DNA of 63,503 nucleotides, counting the filler, from Candidatus Woesearchaeota archaeon (lineage in GTDB: Archaea > Nanobdellota > Nanobdellia > Woesearchaeales > J072): assembly GCA_003695265.1 (NCBI GenBank). It is 4 parts of 4 records of this genome, joined end to end, with 100 filler letters (N's around TTAATTAATTAA, not from the genome) between each part and the next. Parts side by side here need not be neighbours in the genome. Positions count along the whole stretch, not along the records: positions 1 to 6,623 come from RFII01000075.1; 3 more parts are not named here. One strand, given 5' to 3'. Below the pieces are notes generated by a model. It ran no database searches, was not told the DNA's origin, and saw only the letters and a list, made by a program, of their open reading frames with translations. Below, piece after piece: positions 6,069 to 53,909 of the stretch; the first letter of the stretch is position 1, and the number at the start of each line of letters is the position of its first letter. The position numbers were made by a program, and so were the translations under genes.

Positions 6069-6428
6069 ATGGTGCGCTACCCTAAGATTTCTGACACTCC
6101 GGACAAGTTTGACTTAAAAGGGAACAAGCTTTGCAGGAATTGCAGCAAGCAAATTGCAAAGGGGAGAAGGCATTACTGCTCTAAGAAATGCATGGAAGAT
6201 TTCAACAGGAATAACTCATGGTATTTTGTCAGGAAAGACGTTCTTAGAAGAGACAATTACAGGTGCAGCATCTGCAAGAAGAGGTTTAGGAAAGCAGATC
6301 TTGACATTGATCATATAATACCTGTGAGGATGGGTGGAAAGCTCTTTGAGAAAGCCAATCTTAGGACTTTATGCAAGGAATGCCACAAGGCAAAGAGCAG
6401 GCTTGACAAAGAGGCGCTAAACTATTAA
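6069..6428 (+). CDS. Stand-alone HNH endonuclease with N-terminal Zn-finger
   Basis: CRNC...YCSKKC, then RDNYRCSIC...DIDHIIP...NLRTLCKECH. Confidence 0.88.
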   Translation: MVRYPKISDTPDKFDLKGNKLCRNCSKQIAKGRRHYCSKKCMEDFNRNNSWYFVRKDVLRRDNYRCSICKKRFRKADLDIDHIIPVRMGGKLFEKANLRTLCKECHKAKSRLDKEALNY

Positions 6429-6452: not shown

Positions 6453-6623
6453 TGCGCCGGCCGGGACTTTCAACAGATTTTACCGTTGAGGTTCGTGAGA
6501 CTTCACGCAGTGAACGTCTCACTAAAACGCTTTTTACCAGATTTTGGCAAAAATCTGTTTCGAACCCGGATCGACGGCTTGGAAGGCCGTAATCATCTAT
6601 GGCAACCGGTTGCGAACGTTAGT
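6453..6623 (-). tRNA. tRNA-Gly(TCC), 5' end lost in the contig gap; T-loop intron 6467-6558 (92 nt, 59/60) and a D-loop intron running from 6597 into the gap
   Basis: Reverse complement reads ...ATGATT ACGGC CTTCCAA GCCGT CGAT CCGGG TTCGAA [intron] T CCCGG CCGGCGC A; BHB-like junctions GAA-AG^T and CCAT-AG^A. Confidence 0.88.
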
Positions 6624-9869: not shown

Positions 9870-9936
9870 GTTCGTAGCATTTCACGAAGTGAATATGCCA
9901 CTTAAGCACATTTGATCAAACTTTGGTTAAAGTTTG
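9870..9936 (+). repeat. Intergenic copy B of the tRNA T-loop-intron core, abutting tRNA-His
   Basis: GTTCGT...TTCAC-GAA-GTGAA...TTTGGTTAAAGTTTG; direct repeat of copy A at 150 bp spacing. Confidence 0.72.
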
Positions 9937-9937
9937 T

Positions 9938-10114
9938 GGCGGTAGTAGTTTAATGGTAGAATACAGGACTGTGGAAGCAAAGCTGTGGAAATCCTGTGGC
10001 GGGGGTTCGATAACAGTGTTCGGAGCGCGGTTTTCGGAACGCGGCAAAAGCACTCATCACTGCCGAGTTCTGGCTATTGAGCACTGACCGCTGTAGAAAG
10101 TCCCCCCTACCGCC
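9938..10114 (+). tRNA. tRNA-His(GTG) with encoded G-1; introns 9975-9990 (16 nt, 37/38) and 10012-10100 (89 nt, 59/60)
   Basis: G GCGGTAG TA GTTT AATGGTA GAAT A CAGGA CTGTGG[ ]A TCCTG TGGC GGGGG TTCGAT[ ]T CCCCC CTACCGC C; relaxed BHB junctions. Confidence 0.9.
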
Positions 10115-14400: not shown

Positions 14401-14477
14401 TTTTACAATGAGACTTGCAGTCTCCTTGAACCTCTCGCATCAATGGTGGGTTCAAAGGGGAAGAACCACTTGTAAAA
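14401..14477. repeat. MITE/REP-like palindromic element, copy 1
   Basis: TTTACAA...TTGTAAA termini; aligns with the reverse complement of 45630-45707. Confidence 0.75.
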
Positions 14478-14545
14478 AATATTTTTTAATTATTACAACA
14501 GTTTTTGCAAACTTATATATAATTGGTATAATTTCCGCAGAGAAC

Positions 14546-18209: not shown

Positions 18210-21200
18210 TTAAGGAGTCCTTTTTTTACAGCAAACATAGTTTTCGTCACAATTTAATTTGTTTTCCTCTGCTTGTGAATTATCTCCTTTAATGAAAACA
18301 TCATACGGGCTTCTGCATGCGCTTAGAGTGCAAACGCCTTGCACGTTTGGCTGTTCGGGATCATTGCATTTTGGCGCGCAGCACGTATTGTATTTTGATG
18401 ATTTGCACAAAAATTCGTCGTCTCTGTCAGGGTTATAGTTGTATTCTTGCACGTTAATCGTGTTGCCAGTGCAGCTTCCTTGAGAGCAATTCCACCCGTT
18501 TTGCGGGCCGCACTTGCACGGCGCTTTTTGGCATCTGGTGCCGCAGCAAACCTCGTCAGAGCTGCAGTCAGCGTCTCTTTCGCACCTGTGGCCTCCCGCC
18601 CTAATGATTATTGGAATATCACCAATCTGTGGTTGGCCCATGTAAGTTATGAAGTCGCTCGGCCTGGAAAGCTCGCAGCTATTGCTATCAACAGGCTTCC
18701 TCCTAAGCTCGTAATGAACAATCCAGGTTTGGTCCTGCTCCTCAGGCTTTTCTATTGAGTCTATGTAAACGTTGTACTTGGCTGCTTTCATGCATTGAGG
18801 GTCAAAGTCAATGCCTGTTAGCTCAAAAGAGGCATCATTTATGCTGAACGTGCATTTCCCACCTGTACAAGCATCTGCCAGCCTTTTCCTTGGCCCTCCG
18901 TTTATGGAGTATTCGTCTTTTGAAGTTGGGCTGAGCTGGATTCCCAGCTTAGGATCATTCTTATTATCTGCCTCTTTGTCAAAGAACTTGATTTCCGCGT
19001 TTATCGGGTTGTTTCTTGGCTTGACAAGAGTTGCTGGGTTGTGGGTTAGTTTGTATCCCGTGTAGTCTTCTGAGGTTTTAGCCCTGCATTCATTCTTTTC
19101 TTTCATTTCTCTTCCTTCCCACACATACCTTGACTCGAACTCGTCTACTTTGCTCAGCCTAACATTATCAACAAGAGTGAGTGGGTTGTAGAGGTAGCTT
19201 CCGTTAACGCTTATTTCCTCAGTGAATCCTTGCCTTTCATCAACTTTTATGCCTGCGTTGTTCCTTACCTCCACGTACAAGCACACGTTCTCATTGCTTG
19301 GCTGCTTGTAAACGTTGTAAACAAACTTTATGTCATCCCCTTCGTAGTAGGTTTGCTCGCGCGTCGGCTCTATAGGAGCGCCTCCGACGAAGTGCGCTGA
19401 CGTTGCTCCAAGCCACGGAGCTCCTTCACCGCAGCTTATGTAGCCTCCTGTGGGGTCGAAAGTGCAGTCTATGAAATCATACAATGTTCTGTCCTTTATT
19501 GGGAAATAAAAGATGCCGACATTCCCTTCTAAGTGCTCTTCGCTGAAGCAGTCCTCTGCTGACTGCAGTGGCCCGTACTGGCTTCTTCCGCCGAGCTTTG
19601 GGTAAACCACCACTTTGTAATGATCGAACCTTCTCTGTGAGGGCACCACTTTAGAAGCGCCGCCATTAGCAGGGGTTCCCTGCTTTATGCTCCTGTCGCT
19701 GGTGTAGAATAATTGCTGGTAGCTTCCTGACCCCAAGTCGAGGCAGTCGCAGCCTCTCGTGTTGAAAGGGTCGTTTGCTGCAAGCCAGCTGCAGTCTATT
19801 CCGTTGTCGTAGTACTTTGCTTCTTCTTCTGCTGTGACGCATGACAAATAAATGTCGAAGTGGTCTATGTCGCATCCGGGCATTATCCACCAGCCAGCCC
19901 TGTACTCATAAGTCGTGCTTCCGTCAACAGGGTTTATGTTTGTTAGCCTCCTGTTGCTTTCTATCATGTTGAACCCTGTCTCGTAATTAAGCTGGTAGGC
20001 AGTGTCTGCCAGGCCCTTCCAATTCAGGTCCCAGTCACTGAACAATGCTCCTAAGCAGATTTTTCTTGCAACGTTTTCCTCGCTCAATCCGAGGAAATCG
20101 CTTAGCACCGCGTTGTTGTAATCCTCTCCTATTTCCTGTCCTAATTCGTTTACGCCGTCAAACACCGCGCTGAACCCAGTCCTGACAGCAGCTATTACTT
20201 TGTTTTCCTCGTTTTCCGTGTCTGGCCCGCGGAAAACGTCTGATGACTTGCAGCTTCCCTTAACCATGGAGATTAGGTTGTACATTGAGTCGCACACGTA
20301 CTGTGTCATTAGCTCTTTGCACAATCCAGCGTCTGCGTCCCCTCTAACTTTAACTTCTTGCAAGCAGCCTTCCATCGCAGCAAGAAAATTCTTCCAGTAC
20401 TCGATCCTCTTGTACACTAAGCCTACTGCGCCGCACTGCATTGAAAGCCAGAAGCTGTCTTTCGGATCAAGCATTAATGTCTCGTTTTCTTTTCCGAACA
20501 GCTGCCAGAACAAATGATTAGTGCCGAAGCACGCGGGCGCGTCCCTTCCAGCGTAGTACCTGTAAGGGTTGTACAGGTAAGGTCCTGTGCCTGTTTCGCG
20601 CCACCCAGTTATTTCGCCGTTTTGAATGTGAGGCCTTAGCTTCCAGTAGCGGTAATCCCACTCAACATTATCATCTGAGTTTGCTTTATAGTCATAGTAT
20701 GCTGAGTTGTCGTATTCTGAGCTCTTGTCGCTTATGCAGCAGCACTCAACGCTGTCACCAGGATTTTCTTTAGGATCAAAGCATTTTTTGTTTCCTTCAA
20801 CACCAGGTGTTCCATCAAGGCTCGTGTAGCCTGCAGGAACCCTTATTTTTTCTTCGCCAAAACCTGTGCATTCGCTGCTCTTCATGCACTCTCCTCTCTC
20901 ATATTCTATCGGCGAGATTCTCGTGCAGTACTCGTTGCAGCTGAAAGGCCTCGGCGCTAAAAACCTGTCATCAGTACTTCCTGGTAAGACTGCCAAGCAT
21001 TTTGGGGGATTTGTTGGTAAGCTTGACTGCGGCTCATAGCCCTTGTCAACCCTCCAAAGCCACACAATGCCTTTATCAGAGTCAGAACTGGGGCATTTGT
21101 CTTGCGGAGCAACAACGTAGCTCCCTATCTCCTCAACCCCTCTCCTGCTTTGTTTTGTGTATCGCCAGCAGCCCCTCCTGCTGTCAAAGCCTTCTTGCTT

Positions 21201-23573
21201 GGCAGCATCGTTGAATTCCTCGCAACTAGGAAACTTAACAAGGTAATACCCTTTCTCATCCACATCACACTCTTTTTTGTACTGCTTTATGAGTGCCTGG
21301 TCGATTTCTGAATTTGTTTTTTGCTGCGTCCATCTTGACGGCGCGTTATGGCCGAACAATCTGTCACATGTGAACCTGTATGCTGTGTAGAGCTTGCCTT
21401 CTGCCTTCCACGCTGAGGAGCAGCCGCCGTAGCATTTCTCAAGGCATTCATTGCTTAACCTGTTGGGGTCTGGCTTGTTTTTTGAAAGCTCAGCCTGATC
21501 ATTAGCGCTTGAGCATTCTTGAGTGTTTTTGCACTGGTCTTCTGGCGGCGGCCCTGTCCATTTAGCCCAGCCGCACCTGAACCTCCTATAAATAGAGAAA
21601 GCAAGCCTGGCCAGTATTCCTATGCCGCACGCCTTTGAAGTGTATTCTATTAATGGCTGAATTGTGTCCATCAGTTTCTGCAGGTTCTCTTTCTGCTTGC
21701 TTATGAATTCCAGGCCCTCATTGAAAACCCAGCCCGGCAGCTCGCTCGGGTTGAACCTTGCGCTGTCTAAAGTATAAGTAACTTCTGTGCATATGTTTTG
21801 GGTTCCTGTTTTTCTGTGGCCTGCAACGTCCTCGTACTCGTAAGTAACCCTGACTTCCAGCGGAAAGGTTATTTCGTTTGACACCGCTTCTAAGTATGAC
21901 TTAAGATTATCACTGTCCAAGAATTCGCTAAGGTCTCTTAAAGGCCTGAGGTTTGGCCATTGAACCCACCAAATCCTGCCCTGGTCGTCAAGCATTTGCG
22001 CCCTGCCAGCTGTTGTCATTAGCTGGCAGCTCAGGTTGTATCGGTCTCCCTTAAAGTAGCGGTTGCATATCGGTGTTACTTGGACTCCTTTAATAACCTC
22101 ATAATTGTAAGATGTCATAGGCGTGAACTCAAGATATATTGAAAGGCTTTCAGTGCCGTCCTCAATCCTCTCAACGCTTAATGGGTTTGGGGTTTGGTAT
22201 TCTATTAGGTTTCGCACGTTCCAGTGGTACTCGCCTGAGCCGCACGGCGATACTGTGTAGCTGAAAGAGGCTGGCTCTCCTTTCAGGCCGTACTCGTCCC
22301 AAGCAGTTAAAGTTATTGGAATGCTTTTTGTAATCTGGTCGAATTCAGTGCTTTCTTCTCCAGCAGTCACTTCTCTCGGCCATGAGCCTCCATAAGCTAA
22401 GGTGAGGTCAACATCCTTAAACTCGAAATCGCCGTTCTCGTCGGCTGTGACTGTCTCATTGTAAGGCTCTGAAGCTCCTCCAACTCCGATCTGCCTTCCA
22501 GACTGGTTTCTCAGGAAGAACAGGTTTACCCTGGCGTTGGGCTCTGTCTTCCCCTTTATGTCAATATTATCAGCTTGGTCCTCTGAAATCACAGCCCTGT
22601 CAGGTGGTATTATGCTGCTGTGGTTTATTTCCGCGCCGTGCTTGTCAACGATTGTTGAGTTTGTTATGGAAACGCTGTTCCCTGCCAGGTCAAACCCAGT
22701 CACTGTTATTGTGTAAGAATTGTCTTCTTCGCCGAGCCTTACAGTGTCCTCGAAACTGCCCGTCACATTAGTTATTGTTCTGTTGTAGCCGCTGCTCGCC
22801 TCTATTTTTATCATACCGGGCAAATAAGCGTCGCTCAAAGTCCCGGTGAGGTTGAATTCTGACGAGTTAATAATTACTTTGGGGATTTCGCTTATGCTCA
22901 GCACTGGCTCTTCAAAGTCAACTCTTATGTTAAACGTTGTTTCATTCTCATTATTGGAGCTGTCCTTGGAGTAAATCCTCACTTGGTTCACGGTTTGGTC
23001 AAGCTCAATTCTGGGAAAGTTGAAAGTGCCTGAGCTTCCTGTCTGCTCAGCAGTTGACCTCGCCTTGACAATCCCGTTAACGTAAACTATCACTAGTGAG
23101 TTCGGCTCTGTCCTCCCGAAAATTCTTATTTTGTCATCATTAGCGTAGTAATAGTTGTTGTAGAAGTTCGCGGAAACGTTAAAGTCAATAAAAGGAGGCT
23201 GGGTGTCATCACTAACAGGAGTAAAATTGTACTGTGGTGTCACATAACAAGTGTCGTTTGGCAGGCAGGAGCTCAGCTGGTAAAAGTATTCCTGCCCTGT
23301 TATTAGAGGGCTTATGCTAATCGAATGCTCAGTAACAAGCGAGCTGTTTCCGGCTGTGCTGTCTAAGGCTCCAATACCATAGCTTACTGATGAGTTTGAT
23401 GCTTCGTCTGTTTCCCAATTAATCGTTGCGGAGCTTCCTGAAAAAGAAATATTGTTATCAGGACTGTGGGTTATGCTCAGCGCGTAGGCTGTTTCAACGC
23501 TAAGGAAGACTAAAAGGGTTATTAAAGCTAATGCAATGCTTTGCCTCACCTTCTTTTTCATAACATTACTCAT
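18210..23573 (-). CDS. Giant (1787 aa) secreted protein with FN3/Ig-like N-terminus and Cys-rich modules
   Basis: Signal peptide ending AYA; ATINWETDEASNSSVSYG (FN3-like); two G(R/K)TEPN Ig-like repeats; many Cys and N-x-S/T sequons. Confidence 0.85.
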   Translation of the reverse strand: MSNVMKKKVRQSIALALITLLVFLSVETAYALSITHSPDNNISFSGSSATINWETDEASNSSVSYGIGALDSTAGNSSLVTEHSISISPLITGQEYFYQLSSCLPNDTCYVTPQYNFTPVSDDTQPPFIDFNVSANFYNNYYYANDDKIRIFGRTEPNSLVIVYVNGIVKARSTAEQTGSSGTFNFPRIELDQTVNQVRIYSKDSSNNENETTFNIRVDFEEPVLSISEIPKVIINSSEFNLTGTLSDAYLPGMIKIEASSGYNRTITNVTGSFEDTVRLGEEDNSYTITVTGFDLAGNSVSITNSTIVDKHGAEINHSSIIPPDRAVISEDQADNIDIKGKTEPNARVNLFFLRNQSGRQIGVGGASEPYNETVTADENGDFEFKDVDLTLAYGGSWPREVTAGEESTEFDQITKSIPITLTAWDEYGLKGEPASFSYTVSPCGSGEYHWNVRNLIEYQTPNPLSVERIEDGTESLSIYLEFTPMTSYNYEVIKGVQVTPICNRYFKGDRYNLSCQLMTTAGRAQMLDDQGRIWWVQWPNLRPLRDLSEFLDSDNLKSYLEAVSNEITFPLEVRVTYEYEDVAGHRKTGTQNICTEVTYTLDSARFNPSELPGWVFNEGLEFISKQKENLQKLMDTIQPLIEYTSKACGIGILARLAFSIYRRFRCGWAKWTGPPPEDQCKNTQECSSANDQAELSKNKPDPNRLSNECLEKCYGGCSSAWKAEGKLYTAYRFTCDRLFGHNAPSRWTQQKTNSEIDQALIKQYKKECDVDEKGYYLVKFPSCEEFNDAAKQEGFDSRRGCWRYTKQSRRGVEEIGSYVVAPQDKCPSSDSDKGIVWLWRVDKGYEPQSSLPTNPPKCLAVLPGSTDDRFLAPRPFSCNEYCTRISPIEYERGECMKSSECTGFGEEKIRVPAGYTSLDGTPGVEGNKKCFDPKENPGDSVECCCISDKSSEYDNSAYYDYKANSDDNVEWDYRYWKLRPHIQNGEITGWRETGTGPYLYNPYRYYAGRDAPACFGTNHLFWQLFGKENETLMLDPKDSFWLSMQCGAVGLVYKRIEYWKNFLAAMEGCLQEVKVRGDADAGLCKELMTQYVCDSMYNLISMVKGSCKSSDVFRGPDTENEENKVIAAVRTGFSAVFDGVNELGQEIGEDYNNAVLSDFLGLSEENVARKICLGALFSDWDLNWKGLADTAYQLNYETGFNMIESNRRLTNINPVDGSTTYEYRAGWWIMPGCDIDHFDIYLSCVTAEEEAKYYDNGIDCSWLAANDPFNTRGCDCLDLGSGSYQQLFYTSDRSIKQGTPANGGASKVVPSQRRFDHYKVVVYPKLGGRSQYGPLQSAEDCFSEEHLEGNVGIFYFPIKDRTLYDFIDCTFDPTGGYISCGEGAPWLGATSAHFVGGAPIEPTREQTYYEGDDIKFVYNVYKQPSNENVCLYVEVRNNAGIKVDERQGFTEEISVNGSYLYNPLTLVDNVRLSKVDEFESRYVWEGREMKEKNECRAKTSEDYTGYKLTHNPATLVKPRNNPINAEIKFFDKEADNKNDPKLGIQLSPTSKDEYSINGGPRKRLADACTGGKCTFSINDASFELTGIDFDPQCMKAAKYNVYIDSIEKPEEQDQTWIVHYELRRKPVDSNSCELSRPSDFITYMGQPQIGDIPIIIRAGGHRCERDADCSSDEVCCGTRCQKAPCKCGPQNGWNCSQGSCTGNTINVQEYNYNPDRDDEFLCKSSKYNTCCAPKCNDPEQPNVQGVCTLSACRSPYDVFIKGDNSQAEENKLNCDENYVCCKKRTP

Positions 23574-23595
23574 TTTTTATTGTTGTTTAAATATT

Positions 23596-25461
23596 TTATG
23601 TGAGCTCGGGCGCTGAAACGTTAAGCGAATAAGATGGGAGTCCTGAGAAGAACAAAAACTGCTCTTCCTCTGAGCCCTCAAAGCCAACGACGTGGAAGGT
23701 TATCTTGTCAGAGTTCTCTAAATCAGGCCATGGGACATTCCACTGCCTTGAAAGGCCTCCTGTGAGTGTTTCGTTCTCAAAAACGTAGATTGTGAGGTTG
23801 TAAGTGAAGTCATCATCTGCCAGAAGCGTTAGCGGGAAGTCTGAGCTGTTCGGCAGTATTGAGAAGGTGTCATAAGAGTTGTCCGCAGCCACTATTTGTA
23901 TCAGCGCTGTCTCGTTCTCGCTGAGCTCTTCTGTTCTTGACACGTCATTAATGTCATGCTTTATTATCTCAATGTCCTTTATCCTTTTTATTGGGGTGAG
24001 CATTAGGTCGTAAGTGTTGTCCATGTTTGAGTTTATGAACATCTCCTTTTCCAAGTATCCATCGGCCTTCCCCCTTACGATTCCCCTTATGCAGTACGGG
24101 AATTTTTTTGCGAGAGCGTATGCTCCGCCGTGCCAGTCGCTTTGGCCCATTTCGCATGTGTAAGGGCCGCACGTGAAGCTTATGTTTACGTCATCAACGT
24201 ACTCGCCTGTCCTCTCATTGACAGTGTAAATTATTAGGCCGTTTCTCACGTCATTGCAGTATTCCTCGTTCGTAACAGTGTCTGCTGCTTCGAAAACGCT
24301 TCTTCCCAGGTTTTGCCTGTCCGGCCTGTTGTGGTTTATTGAAACCTTGAAAGCAAAATTGAATGAGTAAGCCTCGTGCTCGTCTGTCTTTGAGTCTGTT
24401 ATTGTGACTCTGACAGGGTACTCTATGTCATAAGTGAAGTGCCACAGGCTAACACAAACCCATTTTAGAAGGTCTTGGCCTGGAAGCGTGTTTGACTTCA
24501 ATAACAAGCCGTTGCTCGGCCTAGCGTAGAGGTCGAAAGGCCAGTCCATTTGGTGCTGGAAAGCAACTCTGAAGTCATACTGCGAGTCCGTAAAGTTGAG
24601 GTAGAAGTGGTTTTTCATGTAATCTGTGTCCTGACCTGCTATTTCGTCAGGAATCGGCGTGTACTTAGTGCCTGCAACTTTCACGTATGGCAGGTTATAA
24701 TGCATTAATCTTTGAAGCTCTTTCTTAACGTCAAGCATGTTCCACTCCTTTCCGCCACAATCAATGTCATAACCCATTAAGGGTATTCTGTCCTCGTCCA
24801 AGCCCACAAAGTCCATTGTTCTTTTCTCAAAAAACGCGTAGGAGTTCTCTGCTTCCATTATTTTTGTGGCGAGCTCGTACATTTTCTTTAGCCTTACATT
24901 AACAACTCCATGGAAGTCCTCAACCACGATTGATTTCAGGCCCTGCTTGTTTCTGAACTCGAGCGGGTAATGAACATTAACCACCACGTTCTCATTCGCT
25001 ATGGTTGTTTGCGCGCTTATGTTGCCCAGCTCCACAACGTAGTACTGGCCTTTGAAAGCTGTGAGGTTTTCCAGGCAGGATGGCATTGTTTCCTCAACAA
25101 AGATGCTTATGTCGCGCTGCATTCTCTCAATGCTTGGAGTCTGGTTCACGCCCTCGTAAAACCAGTAGGGCATTTTCATCAAGCCGTTAGGAGCAATCGA
25201 CAAGTAGCTTAGAGGATTCTGCTCTATTCGCTGCGGAAAGTAGATGAAGCCTGACTGCATTCCAAGCCTAGTCACTGCCTCAAAAGCCTTTTCCTCAGCG
25301 CAACTCTCAACATAGCCTATCATTGGCTGGAGCTCGGCAGGGATTATCTGCTCTGGCTTGAAGTACTGGCTCTCGTTCCTCACGTAAACAACAATGAATA
25401 AAGATATTAAAAGGATTATTCCGATGATTATAAAAGCTGTTATCTGCGCTTTTCTTCCCAT
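23596..25461 (-). CDS. Large pilin-like protein with class III signal peptide (621 aa)
   Basis: MGRKA|QITAFIIIGIILL; YVESC...LGMQSGFI and PYW motifs shared with 26168..28459. Confidence 0.82.
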   Translation of the reverse strand: MGRKAQITAFIIIGIILLISLFIVVYVRNESQYFKPEQIIPAELQPMIGYVESCAEEKAFEAVTRLGMQSGFIYFPQRIEQNPLSYLSIAPNGLMKMPYWFYEGVNQTPSIERMQRDISIFVEETMPSCLENLTAFKGQYYVVELGNISAQTTIANENVVVNVHYPLEFRNKQGLKSIVVEDFHGVVNVRLKKMYELATKIMEAENSYAFFEKRTMDFVGLDEDRIPLMGYDIDCGGKEWNMLDVKKELQRLMHYNLPYVKVAGTKYTPIPDEIAGQDTDYMKNHFYLNFTDSQYDFRVAFQHQMDWPFDLYARPSNGLLLKSNTLPGQDLLKWVCVSLWHFTYDIEYPVRVTITDSKTDEHEAYSFNFAFKVSINHNRPDRQNLGRSVFEAADTVTNEEYCNDVRNGLIIYTVNERTGEYVDDVNISFTCGPYTCEMGQSDWHGGAYALAKKFPYCIRGIVRGKADGYLEKEMFINSNMDNTYDLMLTPIKRIKDIEIIKHDINDVSRTEELSENETALIQIVAADNSYDTFSILPNSSDFPLTLLADDDFTYNLTIYVFENETLTGGLSRQWNVPWPDLENSDKITFHVVGFEGSEEEQFLFFSGLPSYSLNVSAPELT

Positions 25462-26171
25462 CTCATAATCCTCCTTGTAGTATTATAAAAGTAGAACCTG
25501 AACCACACACTGTATAGAAAGAATAAAAGCATTGTGGCGTAAGAGCCGTTGTAAAGCCCGTCTAAGTAATTGCCGAGCATGCCAATGAGTGTTAGTATTA
25601 TTATTGCGAAAGCAAAAGGGATAATATAATATACTAGTTTTGTTGCTCCGATTTTAAAGCTTTGCCACACCGCTTTTATTGAGTCAGTCCTCGCGAGCAA
25701 GACTGACATCACATTAGTAAAGTACACGAGAATAATAAACAATGTAAGCATAGCTCCTGTGCTTATGTCAGTTATTAGGGAAAGAAGGTAAATCAGCACA
25801 GCCCATAAGATTATCCAGGAAAGGCTTGCAAGGAAGAAAGCGTAAAATGTTTTTGCAGAGTATTTTTTGTGTGTGATTATCTTCCAAACCTTGGCCTTGA
25901 AAAAAGCTACTGCTGCCAGAAAGATTATTAAGGCTAAGAACACGTAAGCCACGACAACAGAGGCTGCTTTTTGCAGGCTCATTGTCTGAATGTCAGCCTC
26001 TGAGAAAATGCTTTGCAGGCCTAAGTTCATGATGCTCAGCACTAAGAACGAGAAAATGTAGAACGCGATGTCAAGCAACGCTGCAATGCCGTAATCCTTG
26101 TTAATCCTTCTGAAAGAGCTGTAAAGCCCTTCTATTTCCCTTATTACGTAAGATTTTTTTTTCTTTTTCAT
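25440..26171 (-). CDS. Polytopic membrane protein (about 6 TM)
   Basis: Hydrophobic segments throughout; ATGA overlap with the upstream gene. Confidence 0.78.
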   Translation of the reverse strand: MKKKKKSYVIREIEGLYSSFRRINKDYGIAALLDIAFYIFSFLVLSIMNLGLQSIFSEADIQTMSLQKAASVVVAYVFLALIIFLAAVAFFKAKVWKIITHKKYSAKTFYAFFLASLSWIILWAVLIYLLSLITDISTGAMLTLFIILVYFTNVMSVLLARTDSIKAVWQSFKIGATKLVYYIIPFAFAIIILTLIGMLGNYLDGLYNGSYATMLLFFLYSVWFRFYFYNTTRRIMRWEEKRR

Positions 26172-28459
26172 TCGAACATCGGCTTTAACAATTCATTGTT
26201 TTGCTCTGAGTACTCCTGCAGGTTTTTCATATTAAGCATTTCATCCCAGCTGCTCGGCACTCCAAAGTCGAAAACGTACAGTGTCATGTTTTGTTTGCCT
26301 GAGTAAAGGTCTGACTTATAAATTGTTATGTTTGCCAGGCCTCCTCCTGAAGGCCATCCTGTTTGGTTGAGCTCAGGGTACTCTGTTGTCTGGTGGTCAA
26401 CGCAAACGCCCAATATCTTTGTAACGCAGTCCTCGCGGGTTTCAGCAGGAATGTACACTTCGCCATTGTAGTAAAGGTAAGCAACGTACCTGTAAGTTCC
26501 AGGCACGAGGTTGAACGAATAATTTTCCAATGGTATTGTTATGTTCTCATGAGACATTTTATCAAGGTTATTGATCATTTCCTCGTATTCCCCTCTGGTA
26601 ATGCTTCCGTTAGCGTACATTTCATCATAAGCCTGCCTTTGAGCTTCGTAATCAACGTTTATGGGACTTTCTTCTGTCTGGTACCAGATGAAGCTTATCA
26701 GCGGCACGTCTGTCTCGTCAGGATCCTCTTTCACGCGCTGCATCGTAATAGAAACTTTGTCAAGCTCGCCAAGCTCAGTAGCTGCTTCTTTTTTCATCCT
26801 GTAATACTCTGCAGGGCTTGAAGGGTACGGGTCAGGGTAAAGCACTTGGCTTACTAAGTCCTCAGTCCTTTTCTTTACTTTAATATTTATTTCCTTGAAA
26901 GGCCAGAGCTCAAAAGTGAAGCTTTCAGGAGGGCCCTCTTCTAAGTTGTTGAAAAGGATTGGCTTGCTGAAGTAGCCTTGCTTCTCAGCTATTATTTTGC
27001 CGCCGAAAGCGCAGTAAGGGAAATTCGCAGTTAATGCTGCTTGTCCTCCGCTGAGCTCTGTTTCTCCTATGAACACGCGCTGCCCGCACCTGTAGTATAT
27101 CCTTACTCCCACGAGCTCTGAGTCGTCAAGCGCGTTTATTGTCCTCACAGTAATTGACTTGTTTATTAGCTGTCCCGGGTCGTTAATGCTGATAGGAGAA
27201 ACATATGCTGTAACATTGCTCAAGGCTTCTGCCCTTACAGGCTCGTTGTTGATTATGTTGGCTTCTAAAGCAACGTAAAACTCTAAGCCGCGGTTGTTGA
27301 AAGCGTAAGGGTCGTAAAGCCTCATGATAACAGGGAATGAAACGTCGTACTTTACGCGCTCGTCTTTCAGTGACAGGCCGATGAACCTTGTTATGAAGTT
27401 TGAGGGTATTATGTCTGGAGGAATGTAAACTTCTGAGTCTCCAATGCTTACATGTATTGGGGTGTCGGGAGGGTAAAAGAAGCTTACTGCATAGGGGTGT
27501 TGCTTGTCATCATCAGGCATTCTGACAAGCATCATCTTGTATATTCCACTTCTCAAAGGATCTGAGAAACTGTTGGAAAGGCTTGGGTCGTTGTTCAGGG
27601 CGTTCGTGATTTTTACAATCCTTAACAGGTCAAGAATCTCATCCCTTATTATTTGCTCAACAACGTGCCTGACGTAGATGTGGATGTTGTCTCCTAATGT
27701 TAATCCGCTCATCTCAGGAAGGTCAGAGCCTGCTCCAGCGTACAGCACTATTAAGTCCTTTACAATGTTCTCTATGAAAGTGCTCTCACGCTCAAAATTG
27801 ATTATTTCTGTTGCGAAATCCCACAAGCCTTTCAGGTTGACGTCAGCATTCCTAACGAACTTTGAGACTGAGTAAGTTGTTGGGGAGCCTTTCACATTCA
27901 CTTGTAAAGGGTAGTTAACCTTGAACACCACGTTGTTTTTTGTTATCTTAACATCTGTTTTTACTACGCCTTCGCTCACCTCGAACTGCTCAAAGTCAGA
28001 AAAGCCGCGCGTGCACGCCTTTAAGTTCGCGTTCATGTAGTGCTCGAGCTGTGACTCAACAGAGTTGTCGCCGTCAGAGACTTTCTTGAGGCTAGGCCTG
28101 TTGGACCTCACAACAAAATTGTTGTCCACGTAATGCCAGTACGGCAGGTACTGCGGCTCATAAATCAAGACGTCTGAATCAACCGCGAAAGGAGATATTT
28201 CAAGGTCTGAGGGAATGTCCACTGGGTTGATGTAGCCGCCGCCCATTCCGAGCTGCTGTATTGCCTCATACGCAACAGAGTCAATGCACTTGTCAACAAA
28301 CTCCTTTACCGGCTGGATTTCGTAAGGCACTTCCTCTCCTTTTTCAACGCCGGGCTTTAAGCTGCCTATGTTGCCTCTTATGAAAAGGATTACTGCTGTT
28401 GAGAATACTAAGACTATGCCTATTATCAAAAACAGTGTTATCTGACCTCTTTTTTTCAT
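26168..28459 (-). CDS. Large pilin-like protein with class III signal peptide (763 aa)
   Basis: MKKRG|QITLFLIIGIVLV; FVDKC...LGMGGGYI, PYW, YDVSFPV and FPYC..G motifs; paralog of 23596..25461. Confidence 0.82.
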   Translation of the reverse strand: MKKRGQITLFLIIGIVLVFSTAVILFIRGNIGSLKPGVEKGEEVPYEIQPVKEFVDKCIDSVAYEAIQQLGMGGGYINPVDIPSDLEISPFAVDSDVLIYEPQYLPYWHYVDNNFVVRSNRPSLKKVSDGDNSVESQLEHYMNANLKACTRGFSDFEQFEVSEGVVKTDVKITKNNVVFKVNYPLQVNVKGSPTTYSVSKFVRNADVNLKGLWDFATEIINFERESTFIENIVKDLIVLYAGAGSDLPEMSGLTLGDNIHIYVRHVVEQIIRDEILDLLRIVKITNALNNDPSLSNSFSDPLRSGIYKMMLVRMPDDDKQHPYAVSFFYPPDTPIHVSIGDSEVYIPPDIIPSNFITRFIGLSLKDERVKYDVSFPVIMRLYDPYAFNNRGLEFYVALEANIINNEPVRAEALSNVTAYVSPISINDPGQLINKSITVRTINALDDSELVGVRIYYRCGQRVFIGETELSGGQAALTANFPYCAFGGKIIAEKQGYFSKPILFNNLEEGPPESFTFELWPFKEINIKVKKRTEDLVSQVLYPDPYPSSPAEYYRMKKEAATELGELDKVSITMQRVKEDPDETDVPLISFIWYQTEESPINVDYEAQRQAYDEMYANGSITRGEYEEMINNLDKMSHENITIPLENYSFNLVPGTYRYVAYLYYNGEVYIPAETREDCVTKILGVCVDHQTTEYPELNQTGWPSGGGLANITIYKSDLYSGKQNMTLYVFDFGVPSSWDEMLNMKNLQEYSEQNNELLKPMFE

Positions 28460-28464
28460 TTTGA

Positions 28465-29718
28465 TTATTCTGGCCTTACTCCTCCAGTATCCTCATTCAG
28501 ATTGTGTTCTCCGTCATCATTAGTGTCGCCGCTCGGGCCGGTCGGCTGGCTTGTGACTGCTTCTCCCCTCCTGTTCCAAGTGTCTGTTGCCAAGTCACGG
28601 CAGTAGTCGTTGTAGCCGTAAATTTTTTCCTTGAACGTTAAGCAGATAGTAGTATAATTTCTCTGGCTGAAAAAGCTTCTCACAGTGTCGTAGCCGTCGT
28701 TCACTTCTCCTAGGCCTATGCTTATCCATTCCTTGCTGGGATCAGCTGGTATTGCAGTGTATTCGCCGCCATCATATTTCAGCTTTATCTTGTAATGAGC
28801 TACTGGCTCCTTGTCTTCTTCTAAGCTGTTAAGGTATGATGTTTCAAAAGCGTCTCTTTCAAGGTTTCCCACCATCCATTGTATTGTGTAGAGGAAATGA
28901 GTGTCATTGTACAAGACTCTTTCGCCTCCTACCCAGCCGCAAACAGTTCCTTGGCCGCAGTAAACAGCGCTCTGAGCAGCGTGCTCCGGATGCAGAGGAG
29001 TGTTTTTTCTTGGGTTGCACCAGCTCTCCTCCAAGTAATCCCAAGGGTCCTGCACTAAGTCGCCTAAAACGCTTTCGCGCCACCACTCCCCGATTCTTTC
29101 GCCCCAGCCAGTATAACGCCATATCATGTCAAAAGCAACTGTGAAGATGTTGTCTTCTCCCCCGCAGTCCTCATCCCACCAAATATAACATCCTTGTGGG
29201 CAAATCCCATCATCGTCATTGCCGCACTCGCCCCAAAGCCTGACCTCGTCTGCTGGAACGCATTCCTTGTCATTGCAAACGCAGTTTTCAATTTTCCTTT
29301 CCACTTGTTTTCCATCTTCCTCAACAGTTTCTGTACCGCAATTCTTGCATTTGATACCATTGCAAATATCACCTGCTTTGCACTCTTTCTGTCCTGGTTT
29401 TTCCTTACACTTACCAACACGCTCTGATTCCTCCTTGCATTTTTCTTTTTCATCAGGCTTGAAGGCCTTGGTAAGAGTGTCTTTATTACAATACCAACCT
29501 TCATCCGCGAGCTTCCCAAAACAATTACACTTATCATTTACTGTATCCTCACAAGTATTAGAAGGATTGCATTCTTCATAATCATCAACGGTTGGAGTCA
29601 AGCCCAACGTCTCCATTTCATCAGCAGTCAGCTGGATTGTGAGAGTGTCAGCAAAAGATATTCCAATTAATATTAAGAAAATCATTGCCGTTATTCCAAG
29701 TATTATTTTTCGTTTCAT
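28465..29718 (-). CDS. Secreted Cys-rich protein
   Basis: MKRKIILG...SFA signal peptide; DDGICPQGC....DEDC motif; start set by ATGA overlap. Confidence 0.8.
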   Translation of the reverse strand: MKRKIILGITAMIFLILIGISFADTLTIQLTADEMETLGLTPTVDDYEECNPSNTCEDTVNDKCNCFGKLADEGWYCNKDTLTKAFKPDEKEKCKEESERVGKCKEKPGQKECKAGDICNGIKCKNCGTETVEEDGKQVERKIENCVCNDKECVPADEVRLWGECGNDDDGICPQGCYIWWDEDCGGEDNIFTVAFDMIWRYTGWGERIGEWWRESVLGDLVQDPWDYLEESWCNPRKNTPLHPEHAAQSAVYCGQGTVCGWVGGERVLYNDTHFLYTIQWMVGNLERDAFETSYLNSLEEDKEPVAHYKIKLKYDGGEYTAIPADPSKEWISIGLGEVNDGYDTVRSFFSQRNYTTICLTFKEKIYGYNDYCRDLATDTWNRRGEAVTSQPTGPSGDTNDDGEHNLNEDTGGVRPE

Positions 29719-31601
29719 TCGCAATCACTCATTCTGTGTTTAACGGTTTTGTCAACAGCTTTTGAATGATCATCCTTGTTCCACAAATAAACCTTGACTG
29801 TGTATTCTTCTCCTCCATTCAATCCTTCTATTCTTGCTCCCCTCCCTTTTCCATCGATTTCGATTTCGCCTTCTATTCCAGGATACCTGCTTAAGTCAAG
29901 GGTTAAAACGCCGCACTCAAAGCCAGGCTCACGAGCGCAGCATGCATCCTCATCATCTAAGCACTTATCCCTGTTTGCTAAGTCGCATTGTTTTTGCGGG
30001 CCGCAATCCTTATGATATTCCCAATTATTATTACATTTTTTTATTTTATTGTCTTCGCACATATACTGGCCGTTGGTGCATGGTTGCGCGTCACACGGCT
30101 TATCAGGGGGGTATCTTTTGTTAAAGCAGCAGTTTCCAGTTTTCCACACTTGGAACTTATTATTTTCTCCTTTGCACAGGCAAGCAGACGTTATTGGGCC
30201 TTGGTCACACACAGGATAAGTGTCGCATCGCTCATCTAAATGCACGTATTCACCACCAATTTTGCAACACCAGCCATTCCTGGCATCATTGCAATTCGAA
30301 CAAGGATTACTGTCAGTGCATTCAACCGAGTCATGGTTCTGGTTTTGAGACTCCTCTTCCGGCTTGCAGCACTTATTAATATTGTCTTGGCAAGCATCAT
30401 CTCCCGAACAAACTTGTCCTTGAGCACAATAGCCACTTTGCTCAACCCATACCCAATTATTATTCTTCTCACATTTTTTTACTTTATTATCCTCACAAAT
30501 ATACTTATTTCTCATGCTTTCATCACACGTTACAGTGCCGGCGTTTTGATTATTGCTCTGTTGAGAGCAGCAAACCTTGCCTGAATCTGTGCAGTAAAAG
30601 CCCGACATCACATTGCTGTCATCACAATCAGAAGATGCCTTGCATGTTGCTTCTGCTGAGTTGCCTTGGCCGCATTCTTTGCTCGTGTCGCAGCACCACT
30701 TATCACTTAAGCTGCCGTAGCAGTATCCAGGATTGCAGTAAGGTGCGTTATTGCATTCTGTTGTTGATGAAATGCCGCAGTCAGAGCACCTCCAATCAGT
30801 GCCGTATTGTTCTGAGCACGTTTTTTCTTTCTTGCAGCATTTTTTATTGTCAGCACAGTCTGCATAACGCGTGTCAATTCCTCCTTGAGCGTCGCAGCCG
30901 TTATCACCAGAGGTTTTAGCGCATTGGTTTTGAGGGCATTCAGGTTTACATTGCTCTTGAGTTTTATCATTCTTTCTTAAAGCTTTATAAGATGAATCAG
31001 AGATTATATTTTGGTCATTCCAAGCGTTCTTACAATCTTCAGCAGAGGTACAAACCCCTTTACAAGTACATTCAGCAACAACACAAACATTTTTATCAGA
31101 ATCCCAGTACTGTGGCTTAGCCTCACAACTTCCTTTTTCACATGCAGAAAGACCATCACAGTAATTCCTATCAACATTAACCCATCCGTCACCTAAGACG
31201 TCAATACAGTATTGGTTGGTTTCAAGAAGCTTCCATTTGCATTCACCTATGTTTTGCATGTTTTCATATTTGCAACAGCAACTGTACTTCCAAAGAGGGT
31301 CGTCTGGAAGTGGTTCATAACAATCATAACCATTCTGCCTTTCATCACATTTTTTGTTTCCAGAACATTCTTTTAAGAGTTTCCAATAAGATCCTCTTGC
31401 CACAAAGTCTAATACTTTCGTTCTGTCATTTGTGCAAGCTTCCTGCCAAGGCCAAGCCCAAGCATCATGTTGATTTAATTCAGCGCACCTAACACTAGGA
31501 TCCCATGGACACTTCCAGTGACCACTACGCCCTTCCTCTGCAAAGGCAATACTAATTAAGAATAAAATTCCAACAATTAACATTAACATTATTTTTCTCA
31601 T
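29715..31601 (-). CDS. Secreted, extremely Cys-rich repeat protein
   Basis: MRKIMLMLIVG...AFA signal peptide; repeated CEDNK(V/I)KKC..N.W and CC modules; start set by ATGA overlap. Confidence 0.82.
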   Translation of the reverse strand: MRKIMLMLIVGILFLISIAFAEEGRSGHWKCPWDPSVRCAELNQHDAWAWPWQEACTNDRTKVLDFVARGSYWKLLKECSGNKKCDERQNGYDCYEPLPDDPLWKYSCCCKYENMQNIGECKWKLLETNQYCIDVLGDGWVNVDRNYCDGLSACEKGSCEAKPQYWDSDKNVCVVAECTCKGVCTSAEDCKNAWNDQNIISDSSYKALRKNDKTQEQCKPECPQNQCAKTSGDNGCDAQGGIDTRYADCADNKKCCKKEKTCSEQYGTDWRCSDCGISSTTECNNAPYCNPGYCYGSLSDKWCCDTSKECGQGNSAEATCKASSDCDDSNVMSGFYCTDSGKVCCSQQSNNQNAGTVTCDESMRNKYICEDNKVKKCEKNNNWVWVEQSGYCAQGQVCSGDDACQDNINKCCKPEEESQNQNHDSVECTDSNPCSNCNDARNGWCCKIGGEYVHLDERCDTYPVCDQGPITSACLCKGENNKFQVWKTGNCCFNKRYPPDKPCDAQPCTNGQYMCEDNKIKKCNNNWEYHKDCGPQKQCDLANRDKCLDDEDACCAREPGFECGVLTLDLSRYPGIEGEIEIDGKGRGARIEGLNGGEEYTVKVYLWNKDDHSKAVDKTVKHRMSDCE

Positions 31602-34600
31602 TCTTCGCATTCTCCTGTTGCGTAGTTCCATTTGTCTTCTGGGCACATCGCGTCTTCGCAGATGTCTTCCATTTCTGAGGGCAGGTTAAAGTTTAGTTGC
31701 TGGTGCACGCTCGCAACAGCGCCTATCTTGTTGTTCACGTCCATTATTCCGCGTATGGTGTTGGCCATGTCGCAGGCTGCTTTTTGCCAGTCTGAAAGTT
31801 CAGCCCTGCCTTTGCTGTCGCAAGTGAACCAGCTTTGCAGCAGTGCTTTTGCAAGCCTTGGTATTCCTGTTTCAGGAAGTGATATTATGCTTTGCTGAAT
31901 CCCCCTGATAAGCCTTGTGAAACCTAGGAAGTCAAAGGCTTCTCCTAGCACTGTTGTGCACATGTACATTGCTCTGGCGTCTGCGCACATTCCAATGTCG
32001 CCTCCGTTGCTAACTGCTTTCCTCATGCAGTTTATGTATTCGCATTGGATGTAGCGGTACTTCTGCATGTTGTAGATTATTCCTGGAAGGCACGCGGTTG
32101 CGACTGCTGCTGGCAGATTATTCTTCGGGTCTAGTGACGTCGGGCTCATATAGCCATAGCTCTGCAGGCCCCTTATCACGCCAGTGTCTCTTAAGCCTGG
32201 TATTGCTGTGATGTCGCCGCCTATCATGTCAATGTAGCGCTGCCACGGCACAACATAACTGCAGCTCGCGTAATCGCAGTAGTTCCTTAGGCTTGCGTAA
32301 GTGCTTGCCTGCGACAACGTTTTTTTGTCGAGCTTGAAGGTTGGCGGCTGGCTCGGAGCAGATCCTTCCTTGCACCTGTCATAAGCTCCGGATTTCTTCC
32401 AGTAGTCGTACTGGCCGTACCAGAACGGGTAAATAAGATATTTTCCCAGGAATTCGTAAGGGTAGCATCCCACTTGGAAAACCGCTTCTCCAGCTCCTTC
32501 ATTAATGTGTTTTATGAAGCTGCCAAGCGCCTCGAGTGATGAGAACGCCTGCCAGAAGTGAACGACGCTTCTTGCGTTGTTGCAGAAGCCCTCAAACTTT
32601 TTCAGCGCATTGTTTGCTTCTCCAATCCACTCCCAGTCCGCCATTCCGCTTTCCTGCGCTTTCTTTATTTTTTCTTTTATTTTTTCGTCCGGAGGCGCGT
32701 TAAGCCTGCTTCCCCTAAGCTTGACTGGAAAAGTAAAATTGTCAATCTCGGCTTCTGGGTAAACGTTTGAGCCGAGCATTTCGTAAGTCCTTAGCTCGCA
32801 CGTAACATTAAACTTAAACTTGTCTGAGGGCACTTCAGGCCTTAATGGTTTGAGTGCGAAGTCAGCCCTGTTCTCGTCTGACAAGTTCATCCTCGGCCTG
32901 ACAAGCCTGGGATAATTCTCGCTGAAGAAGTAATCTTCATAAATGCTTTCATCCCCTCCTATGCTGCAGTCATCTAATTCCATGTTAAGCACTTTCACGT
33001 TTGGGTTTCCTGTAAGCTTGAACGGAACTGAGTAAGCATATTCGTCAACCAAGGTTAATGTCAGCCTGCTGACTCCATTCTTAGGCCGGATCTCATCCTC
33101 AAGAATATCAACACCAATAAGGTCTTGGCCTGTCTCGTTTAACACGCCGAAGACTTCTTTTTGGATTGTGATGTTTGCTGTGTTGTTTGAAAAGTCGCTC
33201 ACCTCAAAGTACAAGTCAGCAGTCCTGTGGCCTCCCATCACAGTGTCTGTCGGGCTTATCGTGCAAGTGTATAATTCTCCGCTCGCAACAGCGCAGTCAA
33301 CTACGTCATTCTCATGCCCTATGCTGTAAAGCTCTGACAGGTTTGCCCTGGCTTCTCTTATGCCCCAGCCGGGCTCTGTCACGTTGAACGTTATTGTTAT
33401 TACGTCGCCGCCTTTTATTTCTGAGAGGCCGTCCTGGTTTATTATGGAAAAGCTGTCAGCATCGATTATTGGAGCAGCGTCATCAAAGTACAGCATGTAA
33501 TGAGTTTCTCCTGTAACCGCATTTCCAACATCATCTCTTGAAGGGTAAACTATTGAGACGAAGGGAGTGCTGGGCCCTTGAATGTTCACGTTAACTGGCA
33601 CTGTGCATTCCCATGATGGCTCTGCTCCCTCACACCTAAAGACGCGCCTTGCTGTCGTGTAGCTAGGGTTGAGCTCGTTAAGCATTAACCATATTAGATT
33701 ATTATTAAAGCCGGCTCCTGTGTCTGTTAAGACAACTTTCAGGTTCTGCTGCCCTCTTCTCAGATAAAAGTTGCCGTCATTGTCGTAAAGCTCTGTTTCA
33801 ATAGAATTAACAACAGGCGCATCATTGTCCTCAATTAGTGTTGCGCTCACAGCCCTTGTCGTGTTGTGGCCGAACTCATCAAAAGCAGTGACTGTTATCT
33901 CAGCAGTGGTGCTTGACAGCAGCAAGTCTATTTCTCTCCAGGAGCATTCCCAATTGTTGCCTGAGGTTTTCTCGCAGCTAACCCTTCCAGGACTGCCTTT
34001 CTCCCATGAAGTGCTCCTATACTCAGGCTTCTGAGGGTTTAAGCCTGAGATGTCTGCCTCGACTTTCTGCAGGTTTGCGTCAGTTATGGTTACGAAAGCG
34101 TCAACATGGCTTATCGTCCTGTCGCTTCCAGAAGTTGAAACATACCTTACTGGATTGCCGTTCTTCATTAAGGCAAGCGTTCCGCTTATGCTCGGGCTTA
34201 CAGAATCAACAGTGACTGTGCCTAAGCTTTCCATCCTTTCGTTTCCCGTGTTGTCTCTTGCTGTGTAGCTGAATTCTAAGACGCCGTCCTCTGCAGCGTC
34301 TATTGTTTCTGTTATTGTGTGCGTGCAGTCTCCGGGCCACGCGTTAATAACAACTGTTTTGTCAACACTTCCAAGATGGAAAACAATTTCCTTCGTGCCT
34401 GAGCAGCCGTACCCTGTTGCGGAGATTGTGTCCTCAACCACTGCTTCTATCTCAAGAGTCCTGTCATTAGTATTAATTGAGTTTATGCTGACAGTGGGCG
34501 CTACTCCGTCAACCTTTATGCCTGCTTCCACAACAGGCCCTACTGGCTGGTCTCCCTCATATTTTTGCAGCTTGTAAGGTGGAGTTTTTGGGCCTGCTGG

Positions 34601-35670: not shown

Positions 35671-35755
35671 CCTGACAAGTATGGAATTGTATGGATTTAT
35701 AAATTTTGCGTTTTTAAAGAAGCATTTTTTGACTAAAAAAGATTTTAAAAAAGTT

Positions 35756-45600: not shown

Positions 45601-45629
45601 AAACAAATTCCTCTTCTAAAAAAACATTT

Positions 45630-45707
45630 TTTACAATGGGGGCTATGCCCCCTTGAACCCCCTCTTCGATGCGAGGGGTTCAAGTGGACTGCAAGTCCTA
45701 TTGTAAA
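45630..45707. repeat. MITE/REP-like palindromic element, best-preserved copy
   Basis: Terminal TTTACAAT/ATTGTAAA enclosing three hairpins. Confidence 0.78.
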
Positions 45708-46320: not shown

Positions 46321-46537
46321 GGGCCCATAGTCTAGTGGCTCAACTGATTGCATCAGGTAAAAATCGCAATCAGTTCCACAGATGACGTCGCCTTCACAAA
46401 AACTTTTGAGAAAGGCGGAGGTCGCCGGTTCGAAACAGCTTTTTGCCAAAACCCAGGAGAAAGCGTTTAAGTGAGACGCTCACTGCGCGAAGTCCCACGA
46501 ACTTTGTAAAAAGCTGTTGAAAGTCCGGCTGGGCCCA
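46321..46537 (+). tRNA. tRNA-Val(CAC) with three introns: 46341-46381 (41 nt, 20a/21), 46399-46412 (14 nt, 37/38), 46435-46523 (89 nt, 59/60)
   Basis: Spliced: GGGCCCA TA GTCTAGTGGCTATGAC G TCGCC TTCACAA GGCGG AGGTC GCCGG TTCGAAT CCGGC TGGGCCC A; central helices GTGG/CCAC, TTCA/TGAG, TTCG/TGAA. Confidence 0.92.
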
Positions 46538-50173: not shown

Positions 50174-50182
50174 AGGTTAAAC

Positions 50183-50274
50183 CAATTTTGTTTTGTTTGG
50201 AGATTACATTGCTTTGTCCCGCCCACACCACCTCTTTAACACTAAAACCAATCTCACTTAAGTTGACTTAACCA
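50183..50274. repeat. About 90-bp direct repeat, copy 1
   Basis: 43/50 ungapped identity with 53778-53827, plus 22/23 identity of 50252-50274 with 53843-53865. Confidence 0.85.
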
Positions 50275-53769: not shown

Positions 53770-53777
53770 GATAAAGT

Positions 53778-53865
53778 CAATTTTGTTGAGTTAGGAAATT
53801 ATAATGCTTAGTCCCGCCCACACCACCCAAGCATGAAAGCTTTCTCACTTAAGCTGACTTAACCA
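53778..53865. repeat. About 90-bp direct repeat, copy 2
   Basis: Shares GTCCCGCCCACACCACC and TCTCACTTAAGYTGACTTAACCA with 50183-50274. Confidence 0.85.
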
Positions 53866-53909
53866 ATCAATAATTAGTTTTTTATACTCAATCTTATTCC
53901 CAAACAATA

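Follow-up and report, generated by a model that had tools for sequence, protein, structure and literature searches.

Two T-loop introns at position 59/60 of tRNA genes in a woesearchaeal genome appear to belong to a family of BHB introns that was probably built round a non-coding, non-autonomous mobile DNA element of about 65 nt and was then copied whole between tRNA genes. The window, that is the whole stretch of 63,503 nt analysed, consisted of four contigs of a single bin (G000; 1.06 Mb, 94.6% complete, 0.57% contamination) joined through N spacers, and contained the following features.

6453..6466, minus strand: 3′ exon of tRNA-Gly(UCC), T60 to the discriminator, with the acceptor stem pairing with the 5′ end on contig C75
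6467..6558, minus strand: T-loop intron of tRNA-Gly(UCC) at 59/60, 92 nt, with a full 4-bp central helix
6493..6557, minus strand: element core in the Gly intron, 65 nt, starting at intron nt 2, with hairpin 1 at 6557-6538, a linker, and hairpin 2 at 6522-6495
6467..6492, minus strand: closing arm of the Gly intron, pairing with the 5′ arm of hairpin 1 and supplying the 3′ strand of the BHB
6559..6596, minus strand: middle exon of tRNA-Gly(UCC) (3′ side of the D stem, anticodon arm, 5′ side of the T stem), boundary inferred from BHB geometry
6597..6623, minus strand: 3′ end of the tRNA-Gly(UCC) D-loop intron, of a different hairpin family, continuing on C75
9722..9785, minus strand: second element copy upstream of tRNA-His, degenerate, adjoining a stretch that resembles a tRNA 5′ end
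9872..9936, minus strand: inverted element copy outside introns, 1 nt upstream of tRNA-His G-1
9938..10114, plus strand: tRNA-His(GUG), interrupted by an anticodon intron and by a 59/60 intron of 89 nt (10012-10100)
46321..46537, plus strand: tRNA-Val(CAC) gene, with three introns
46341..46381, plus strand: D-loop intron of tRNA-Val, boundaries inferred from BHB geometry
46399..46412, plus strand: canonical 37/38 intron of tRNA-Val, boundaries inferred from BHB geometry
46435..46523, plus strand: T-loop intron of tRNA-Val at 59/60, 89 nt
46436..46500, plus strand: element core in the Val intron, with hairpin 2 at 46471-46498

The introns of tRNA-Gly(UCC) and tRNA-Val(CAC) shared the same insertion point, T-loop 59/60. 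As the preliminary description had stated, 58 of their first 68 nt were identical, the same terminal 10-mer closed both, an A/C plus T/G compensatory change distinguished their closing stems, and their exons were unlike; the match over these 68 nt was ungapped, identity over the full intron length was 80% by BLAST (E 3e-18), and the 36 flanking exon nt were 0.64 identical. That description knew two copies, whereas 19 loci with the intron core were found in G000. Its proposal of intron movement between tRNA genes can now be stated as copying of whole introns, which are more alike than the exons flanking them; the qualifier "recent" suits a Gly trio and a Leu/Cys pair but less so the Gly/Val pair. 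Selection on a splice-competent stem, also proposed, agrees with the stem change, but the core covaries outside introns as well, and transposition of the Thermoproteales type fits only in part, the core being also found inverted, outside introns and between target-like direct repeats. Presence was patchy among isoacceptors, a pattern which that description had named as support for mobility, with Val(CAC) carrying the intron and Val(UAC) lacking it.

The tRNA-Gly(UCC) gene was cut by a contig end and resumed on contig C75 through an exact 99-nt overlap, its acceptor stem pairing across the intron, whereas the tRNA-Val locus lay in the interior of contig C30. In contigs of one public run, possibly from the source sample, the unique flanks of the Gly locus had depths of 11-15 and the shared core pieces 32-35, as expected from three near-identical copies. 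None of these contigs spanned the whole intron, and no joint in them contradicted the assembly; a misassembly at the Gly locus is thus unsupported.

Intron identity was compared with that of the 36 flanking exon nt. The three Gly introns were 0.97-0.99 identical beside exons of 0.69-0.89, Gly and Glu introns 0.89-0.90 beside 0.72-0.78, and those of Leu(UAG) and Cys 0.96 beside 0.64; Gly and Val introns shared 0.79-0.82 overall, with 0.80 beside exons of 0.64 for Gly(UCC) and Val. The pattern that marks translocatable introns was therefore present, namely at least 80% similarity in different tRNA types with less similar exons, and because intron identity exceeded flanking-exon identity, conversion of whole genes is argued against. 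Near-identical T-loop introns also occurred in three tRNAs of a second genome, G065. These data support the conclusion that whole introns were copied between different tRNA genes. Among relatives, a set holding no genome of the same family, the T-loop intron of tRNA-Gly(UCC) was present in G000 and G047 and absent from G065 and L045. In G247, of another family, tRNA-Gly(GCC) carried a T-loop intron with very similar ends, and the site may thus be old. No second copy of a Gly or Cys tRNA free of the T-loop intron was found in G000 by an Rfam tRNA search and the census described below.

The core of about 65 nt shared by the Gly and Val introns comprised hairpin 1, a linker and a bulged hairpin 2. 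Hairpin 1 was variable in sequence, hairpin 2 had 7 bp, a 1-nt bulge, 5 bp and mostly a 3-nt loop, and the ends were fixed, a C opening hairpin 1 and CACGA closing hairpin 2. This unit occurred in both orientations, inside and outside introns; the closing arm was present in intron copies only. Compensatory changes in hairpin 2 were observed at 7 of 12 pairs (44 cells), most of them at positions on which the search patterns set no constraint, an amount reached in none of 500 shuffles, although such counts are inflated by relatedness.

A covariance model that rested on 34 copies (18 from G000) gave 20 matches in this genome at E <=1e-5, corresponding to 19 loci after one contig overlap. Twelve were T-loop introns (Gly three times, Glu, Val, Thr, Leu twice, Cys, Arg twice, and Ser, in which the core was inverted); the others were one D-loop intron, the P3 region of RNase P (inverted) and five tRNA flanks, two of them in the window. 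Thus, all 19 loci lay at stable-RNA genes, compared with about 31% of the non-coding or RNA-gene sequence of G000 lying equally close to such genes and with only 3 of 55 copies of an unrelated intergenic repeat family, counted by profile as a control. Two copies of this control repeat, which is MITE-like, about 100 nt long and has inverted ends (about 55 copies), were observed in the window at 50175-50274 and 53770-53866. A palindromic repeat family of about nine copies was represented at 14402-14478 and 45628-45707; five of the nine were near RNA genes and one was upstream of topA.

By the same covariance model the element was detected in 29 of 150 genomes of the order, that is G000 and 28 of 149 others, a tally that includes one unpublished genome (G120); most of these genomes had 1-3 copies, at differing sites. 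In a phylum sample it was found in 20 of 150 genomes, all 20 from the same order. Exact patterns retrieved 18 GTDB loci and 61 metagenome loci, some of them duplicates or chance matches. Eighteen named records contained the core pattern, nine labelled Woesearchaeota, Nanoarchaeota or Nanoarchaeia, five uncultured Methanosarcinales and one "archaeon", with three apparently chance matches. No match to the exact patterns was obtained in two scans of viral contigs. A BLAST search of the intron against 40 relatives gave two weak matches, of which one (G001) was a true copy. Copies were observed in introns of the T-loop, the D-loop and the anticodon region, at tRNA ends, and at either the start or the end of protein genes, among them that for ribosomal protein S12, the other host genes having been read by eye. 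Two insertion sites in 16S rRNA and the RNase P host were confirmed by Rfam, and a second RNase P insertion, also inverted, was located in G189. Rfam 15 matched the element neither in the window at gathering score nor in six loci at E 0.1, and a search of the open full-text literature yielded no description of it. In G223, two loci (L199 and L212) each contained three element copies in head-to-tail order, starting immediately behind a tRNA 3′ end and with a period of about 73 nt.

Copies outside introns were usually framed by a repeat of host sequence on either side. With a threshold at the 99% null from 2154 cross-genome pairs, a direct repeat abutting the left end was found in 19 of 30 non-intron copies versus 0 of 18 intron copies; intron class and junction offsets in this 48-copy set were assigned by hand, and the copies are related, so that the counts are not independent. 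The set includes two copies on contig C32 of G000 and omits L169 and L180, bordered by N and by a contig end respectively, a second match at L170 and the locus of the unpublished genome. A significant repeat was missing in 11 of the 30, one of the two C32 copies narrowly so. Repeat lengths were about 17-67 bp. Among 22 further matches, repeats of host sequence passed in 6 of 17 copies outside introns and in none of the 5 that lay in introns or loops; a seventh passing copy was a tandem self-repeat, and three more repeats were visible by eye. The repeats included starts or ends of protein genes. One of the two repeat copies completes the host gene, which explains the survival of the insertion.

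Left and right repeats differed in a regular manner. In 16 of 19 a difference fell within the last 7 nt, the first difference being at -6 in nine, while positions -16 to -8 matched fully in 16 of 19 (this core was the alignment anchor, and the row of L184 was mis-anchored). The tail of the left repeat was altered likewise in 5 of the 6 passing copies among the 22 further matches, which served as a held-out set. Error-prone joining and escape from re-cutting are candidate causes of the altered left joint. No empty and filled pair of one site was found among close relatives in the sets searched, in which G000 stands alone in its family.

The loop of hairpin 2 carried a strand signature. Read on the strand opposite to the written one, it was GNA closed by C-G in 38 of 48 distinct hairpins. 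The written strand, which in most introns corresponds to the RNA, showed this loop in none of the 48. According to PMC13037366, DNA mini-hairpins with a GNA loop are very stable, much more so than the RNA counterpart that was tested, and are found on single-stranded DNA at primase and polymerase sites. Mismatches leaned the same way as the loop, with 14 A.C versus 5 G.T (p 0.06), and the three in hairpin 2 of the Val intron were all A.C, equivalent to G.T on the opposite strand. Folding energies computed with DNA parameters favoured the opposite strand in only 11 of 48 and do not discriminate. The loop signature on the non-RNA strand, together with the presence of both orientations, favours an element acting at the DNA level.

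No match for a Y1 transposase, RT or Cas1 was found in G000 at 94.6% completeness, no transposase or integrase among 114 scanned ORFs (of 132) near the metagenome copies, and no match to the element model in 30 Y1 loci. Y1 occurred in 12 of 29 element-positive genomes versus 56 of 151 overall, and RT in 9 of 29 element-positive versus 24 of 121 element-negative genomes. Having either no match in G000 or no association, Y1, RT and Cas1 were set aside as mobilisers; since bins often lose mobile DNA, the absence of an enzyme is weak evidence. On one metagenome contig, a LAGLIDADG protein (L076:702-1406), one of the 114 scanned ORFs, adjoined an element-bearing tRNA-Leu.

The most likely course of events, favoured with moderate confidence, is as follows. 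The element would move as DNA, the strand opposite to the intron RNA folding into the bulged hairpin with its c-GNA-g loop, which a protein would recognise on single-stranded DNA. It would insert at loops and ends of highly transcribed genes, duplicating 17-67 bp of target with errors in about 6 nt at the left joint. An insertion would survive only where the duplication rebuilds the gene end, where it falls in a tolerant stem-loop such as P3 of RNase P, or where pairing of a closing arm with hairpin 1 creates a BHB that could be spliced by EndA and RtcB. The intron form would then be copied in full from the T-loop of one tRNA gene into that of another, leaving no duplication, a step that the intron identities show in part and that is most likely a DNA-level conversion on the short T-arm sequence which these genes share. 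Least secure in this scheme is where the closing arm comes from; a plain target duplication was rejected as its source, as the geometry yields a 1-nt and not a 3-nt bulge.

The intron itself could instead be the unit, spread by transposition of the Thermoproteales type or by conversion between T-arms, with the non-intron copies as debris of faulty copying or local inversion. In its favour, G000 and G065 each carry whole introns that are nearly identical in different tRNAs, the inverted repeats at the intron ends could turn the interior round, as in tRNA-Ser, the insert in RNase P was 71% like the Ser intron with the same junction motif, and the mobilising enzyme was not found. We nevertheless regard it as rather unlikely, given that non-intron copies lack the closing arm and have sharp ends at the same bases, that target-like duplications also occur at protein genes without intron history, and that the conserved loop signature lies on the non-RNA strand. 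It is very improbable that the hairpin is a domesticated site, retained at strongly transcribed genes as a signal for processing or for the binding of a protein to DNA, and passively spread: its structure is strongly conserved across families, the G000 copies lie exclusively at stable-RNA genes, and the same sites recur in RNase P and tRNA-Ser, but the element is restricted to 29 of 150 genomes, mostly with 1-3 copies at different sites, and its position varies among intron, leader and trailer.

Two further explanations concern the origin of the repeats. The arrangement of repeat, element and repeat may be the scar left where a virus or plasmid once entered the genome at the end of a tRNA gene, on the lines of the Caldiarchaeum model; tRNA 5′ and 3′ fragments lie beside many copies, joints are often in D- and T-loops, and PMC3293823 proposes intron gain through site-specific integration. 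This is improbable in view of the constant size of about 55-70 nt in most copies across many families, the lack of an integrase among the 114 neighbouring ORFs and of matches in both viral-contig scans, and the altered tails of the left repeats, which break T-loops or change conserved codons and are thus not functional homologues. As little credit can be given to an RNA route, in which excised intron RNA is reverse-spliced or ligated into abundant RNAs and copied back by an RT, target-primed synthesis giving rise to the duplications and joint errors. The highly transcribed targets, the long and variable duplications and the RT frequencies given above would suit it, but both orientations occur, no RT match was obtained in the three highest-copy genomes of the sample (G000, G047, G065), the difference in RT frequency is small and the loop signature is of the DNA type.

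Judged by analogy, the element that we prefer as the unit seems to resemble the translocatable introns of Thermoproteales at its second stage and the YPAL and Rickettsia palindromic element (RPE) repeats at its first. The former are similar in different tRNA genes, occupy non-canonical sites, depend on a BHB and supposedly move at the DNA level, as stated in PMC4090602, PMC4390854 and bioRxiv 10.64898/2026.10.13.758758. The family described here belongs to a different lineage; its introns measure 89-112 nt and contain a conserved inner element of which copies occur outside introns as well, and it involves class II tRNAs (Leu, Ser), in which no translocatable intron was known according to PMC4390854. 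Among the bacterial repeats treated in PMC2229807, YPAL/RU-2 of Yersinia is non-coding, with internal inverted repeats, target duplications of 3-26 bp and targets near dyad symmetry, and RPEs are non-coding and inserted in tmRNA and RNase P RNA genes. The present element is shorter (65 vs 105-168 bp), with longer duplications (17-67 bp) altered at one joint; by description, it is further set apart in being archaeal, concentrated at stable-RNA genes and predicted to form spliced introns.

Hairpins of REP and IS200-IS605 elements bound by Y1 TnpA are imperfect palindromes with a conserved bulge and strand specificity (PMC8266576). The element is similar in having a hairpin with a 1-nt bulge and a strand-specific loop, but it showed no Y1 linkage and no GTAG or guide tetranucleotide in alignment A2. 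It makes long duplications, which REP and IS200-IS605 elements are not known to do. Casposons target tRNA genes near the T-loop and duplicate about 15 bp (PMC5137440); the element has no TIRs, no coding capacity and a variable duplication length, and G000 yielded no Cas1. Eukaryotic introners, transposable elements that create introns on insertion, are spliceosomal (PMC12130899), whereas splicing here is predicted to be of the EndA/BHB type and the element needs an added closing arm. Target-site duplication in 19 of 30 non-intron copies recalls a classical MITE, but the duplications are long and variable, and in place of terminal inverted repeats the element has two dissimilar ends and hairpins in its interior. 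None of the 114 scanned neighbouring ORFs was a transposase. A repeat mobilised by a retroelement is likewise a poor match, with both orientations rather than sense only, and no RT match in G000.

A broader claim, put forward tentatively, is that of an archaeal introner: a new class of single-strand DNA element of about 65 nt whose mover is not Y1, RT or Cas1, which would target loops and ends of highly transcribed genes, generate 17-67 bp duplications mutated in six left-joint bases, and give tRNA and 16S rRNA genes newly formed BHB introns; the mutations at the joint could then be a mark of error-prone joining or of escape from re-cutting. One sequence serving both as the core of a BHB intron and as an insert with target-like duplications provides a concrete donor with defined ends, offers a DNA substrate for finding the enzyme, and may seed archaeal tRNA introns. 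A preprint on Asgard tRNAs (bioRxiv 10.64898/2026.10.13.758758) reports tests of copying, mobile elements and reverse transcription with no general arrival route, places 28.3% of intervening sequences in cross-isotype families in Thermoproteales and 1.5% in Asgard archaea, and makes no mention of DPANN.

T-loop inserts were found in 28 of 40 tRNA genes of G000: a pairing-based search yielded 31 complete genes, 20 with a T-loop insert, and nine added genes (hand-read or broken at contig ends) contributed eight more. Default ARAGORN called 11 tRNA genes against these 40, permissive ARAGORN for the most part made false calls, and the tRNA-Val(CAC) gene was overlooked both by ARAGORN and by Rfam at gathering score. 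The repeats also affect annotation by breaking the assembly at tRNA genes. The exon-intron borders had the archaeal BHB form, a 4-bp central helix with 3-nt bulges, and of the 20 T-loop introns in the census, 18 had the central helix in full. A relaxed form, with one extra nt next to the inner helix, was seen in the introns of Val, Glu and Gly(CCC), and the Gly(UCC) intron was relaxed through one additional nt on the 3′ side of that helix. Both EndA and the RNA ligase RtcB are encoded in G000, and judging from their genes and the intron folds, the predicted BHB introns are probably spliced by these two proteins. EndA was a single 190-aa protein (gene at L001:456-1028, contig C17) with 3IEY chain A, the Nanoarchaeum equitans catalytic subunit, as top PDB match. 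No second EndA subunit was detected in G000, despite abundant non-canonical and relaxed introns. A relaxed 59/60 intron was cleaved in vitro by the ARMAN-2 enzyme, and alpha4 EndA enzymes are said to require strict sites (PMC3239211).

Other repeat families were observed in the tRNA genes. The interior of the 59/60 intron of tRNA-His belonged to a family different from the Gly/Val core; this second family, shared by His, Pro, Met, Phe, Ser and others, was located at 10012-10100 in the window and on contigs C85, C86, C89, C22, C52 and C102 of G000, the introns of tRNA-Ser(UGA) and tRNA-Ser(CGA) being identical. A third, palindromic family was nested in the element or the intron (contigs C33/C34/C72/C91/C84 of G000; loci L061, L083, L086, L088 and L101), the introns serving as sanctuaries for nested repeats. 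A fourth was present in the D-loop introns of Gly(UCC), Lys and an Ile-like tRNA (contigs C75, C13 and C22), the copy on C13 matching the element model weakly (E 0.49). Elsewhere in the window, a 119-aa HNH-type ORF at 6069-6428 (plus strand), with a weak match to the IscB model far under the cut-off, ended 24 nt from the tRNA-Gly 3′ end, and a series of long ORFs of up to 1787 aa occupied 18210-37843 (minus strand) on a contig of higher GC content (44%). The gene at 61329-61425 (minus strand), called Ala or Leu by ARAGORN, was read by hand as tRNA-Arg(GCG) with D-loop and anticodon introns.
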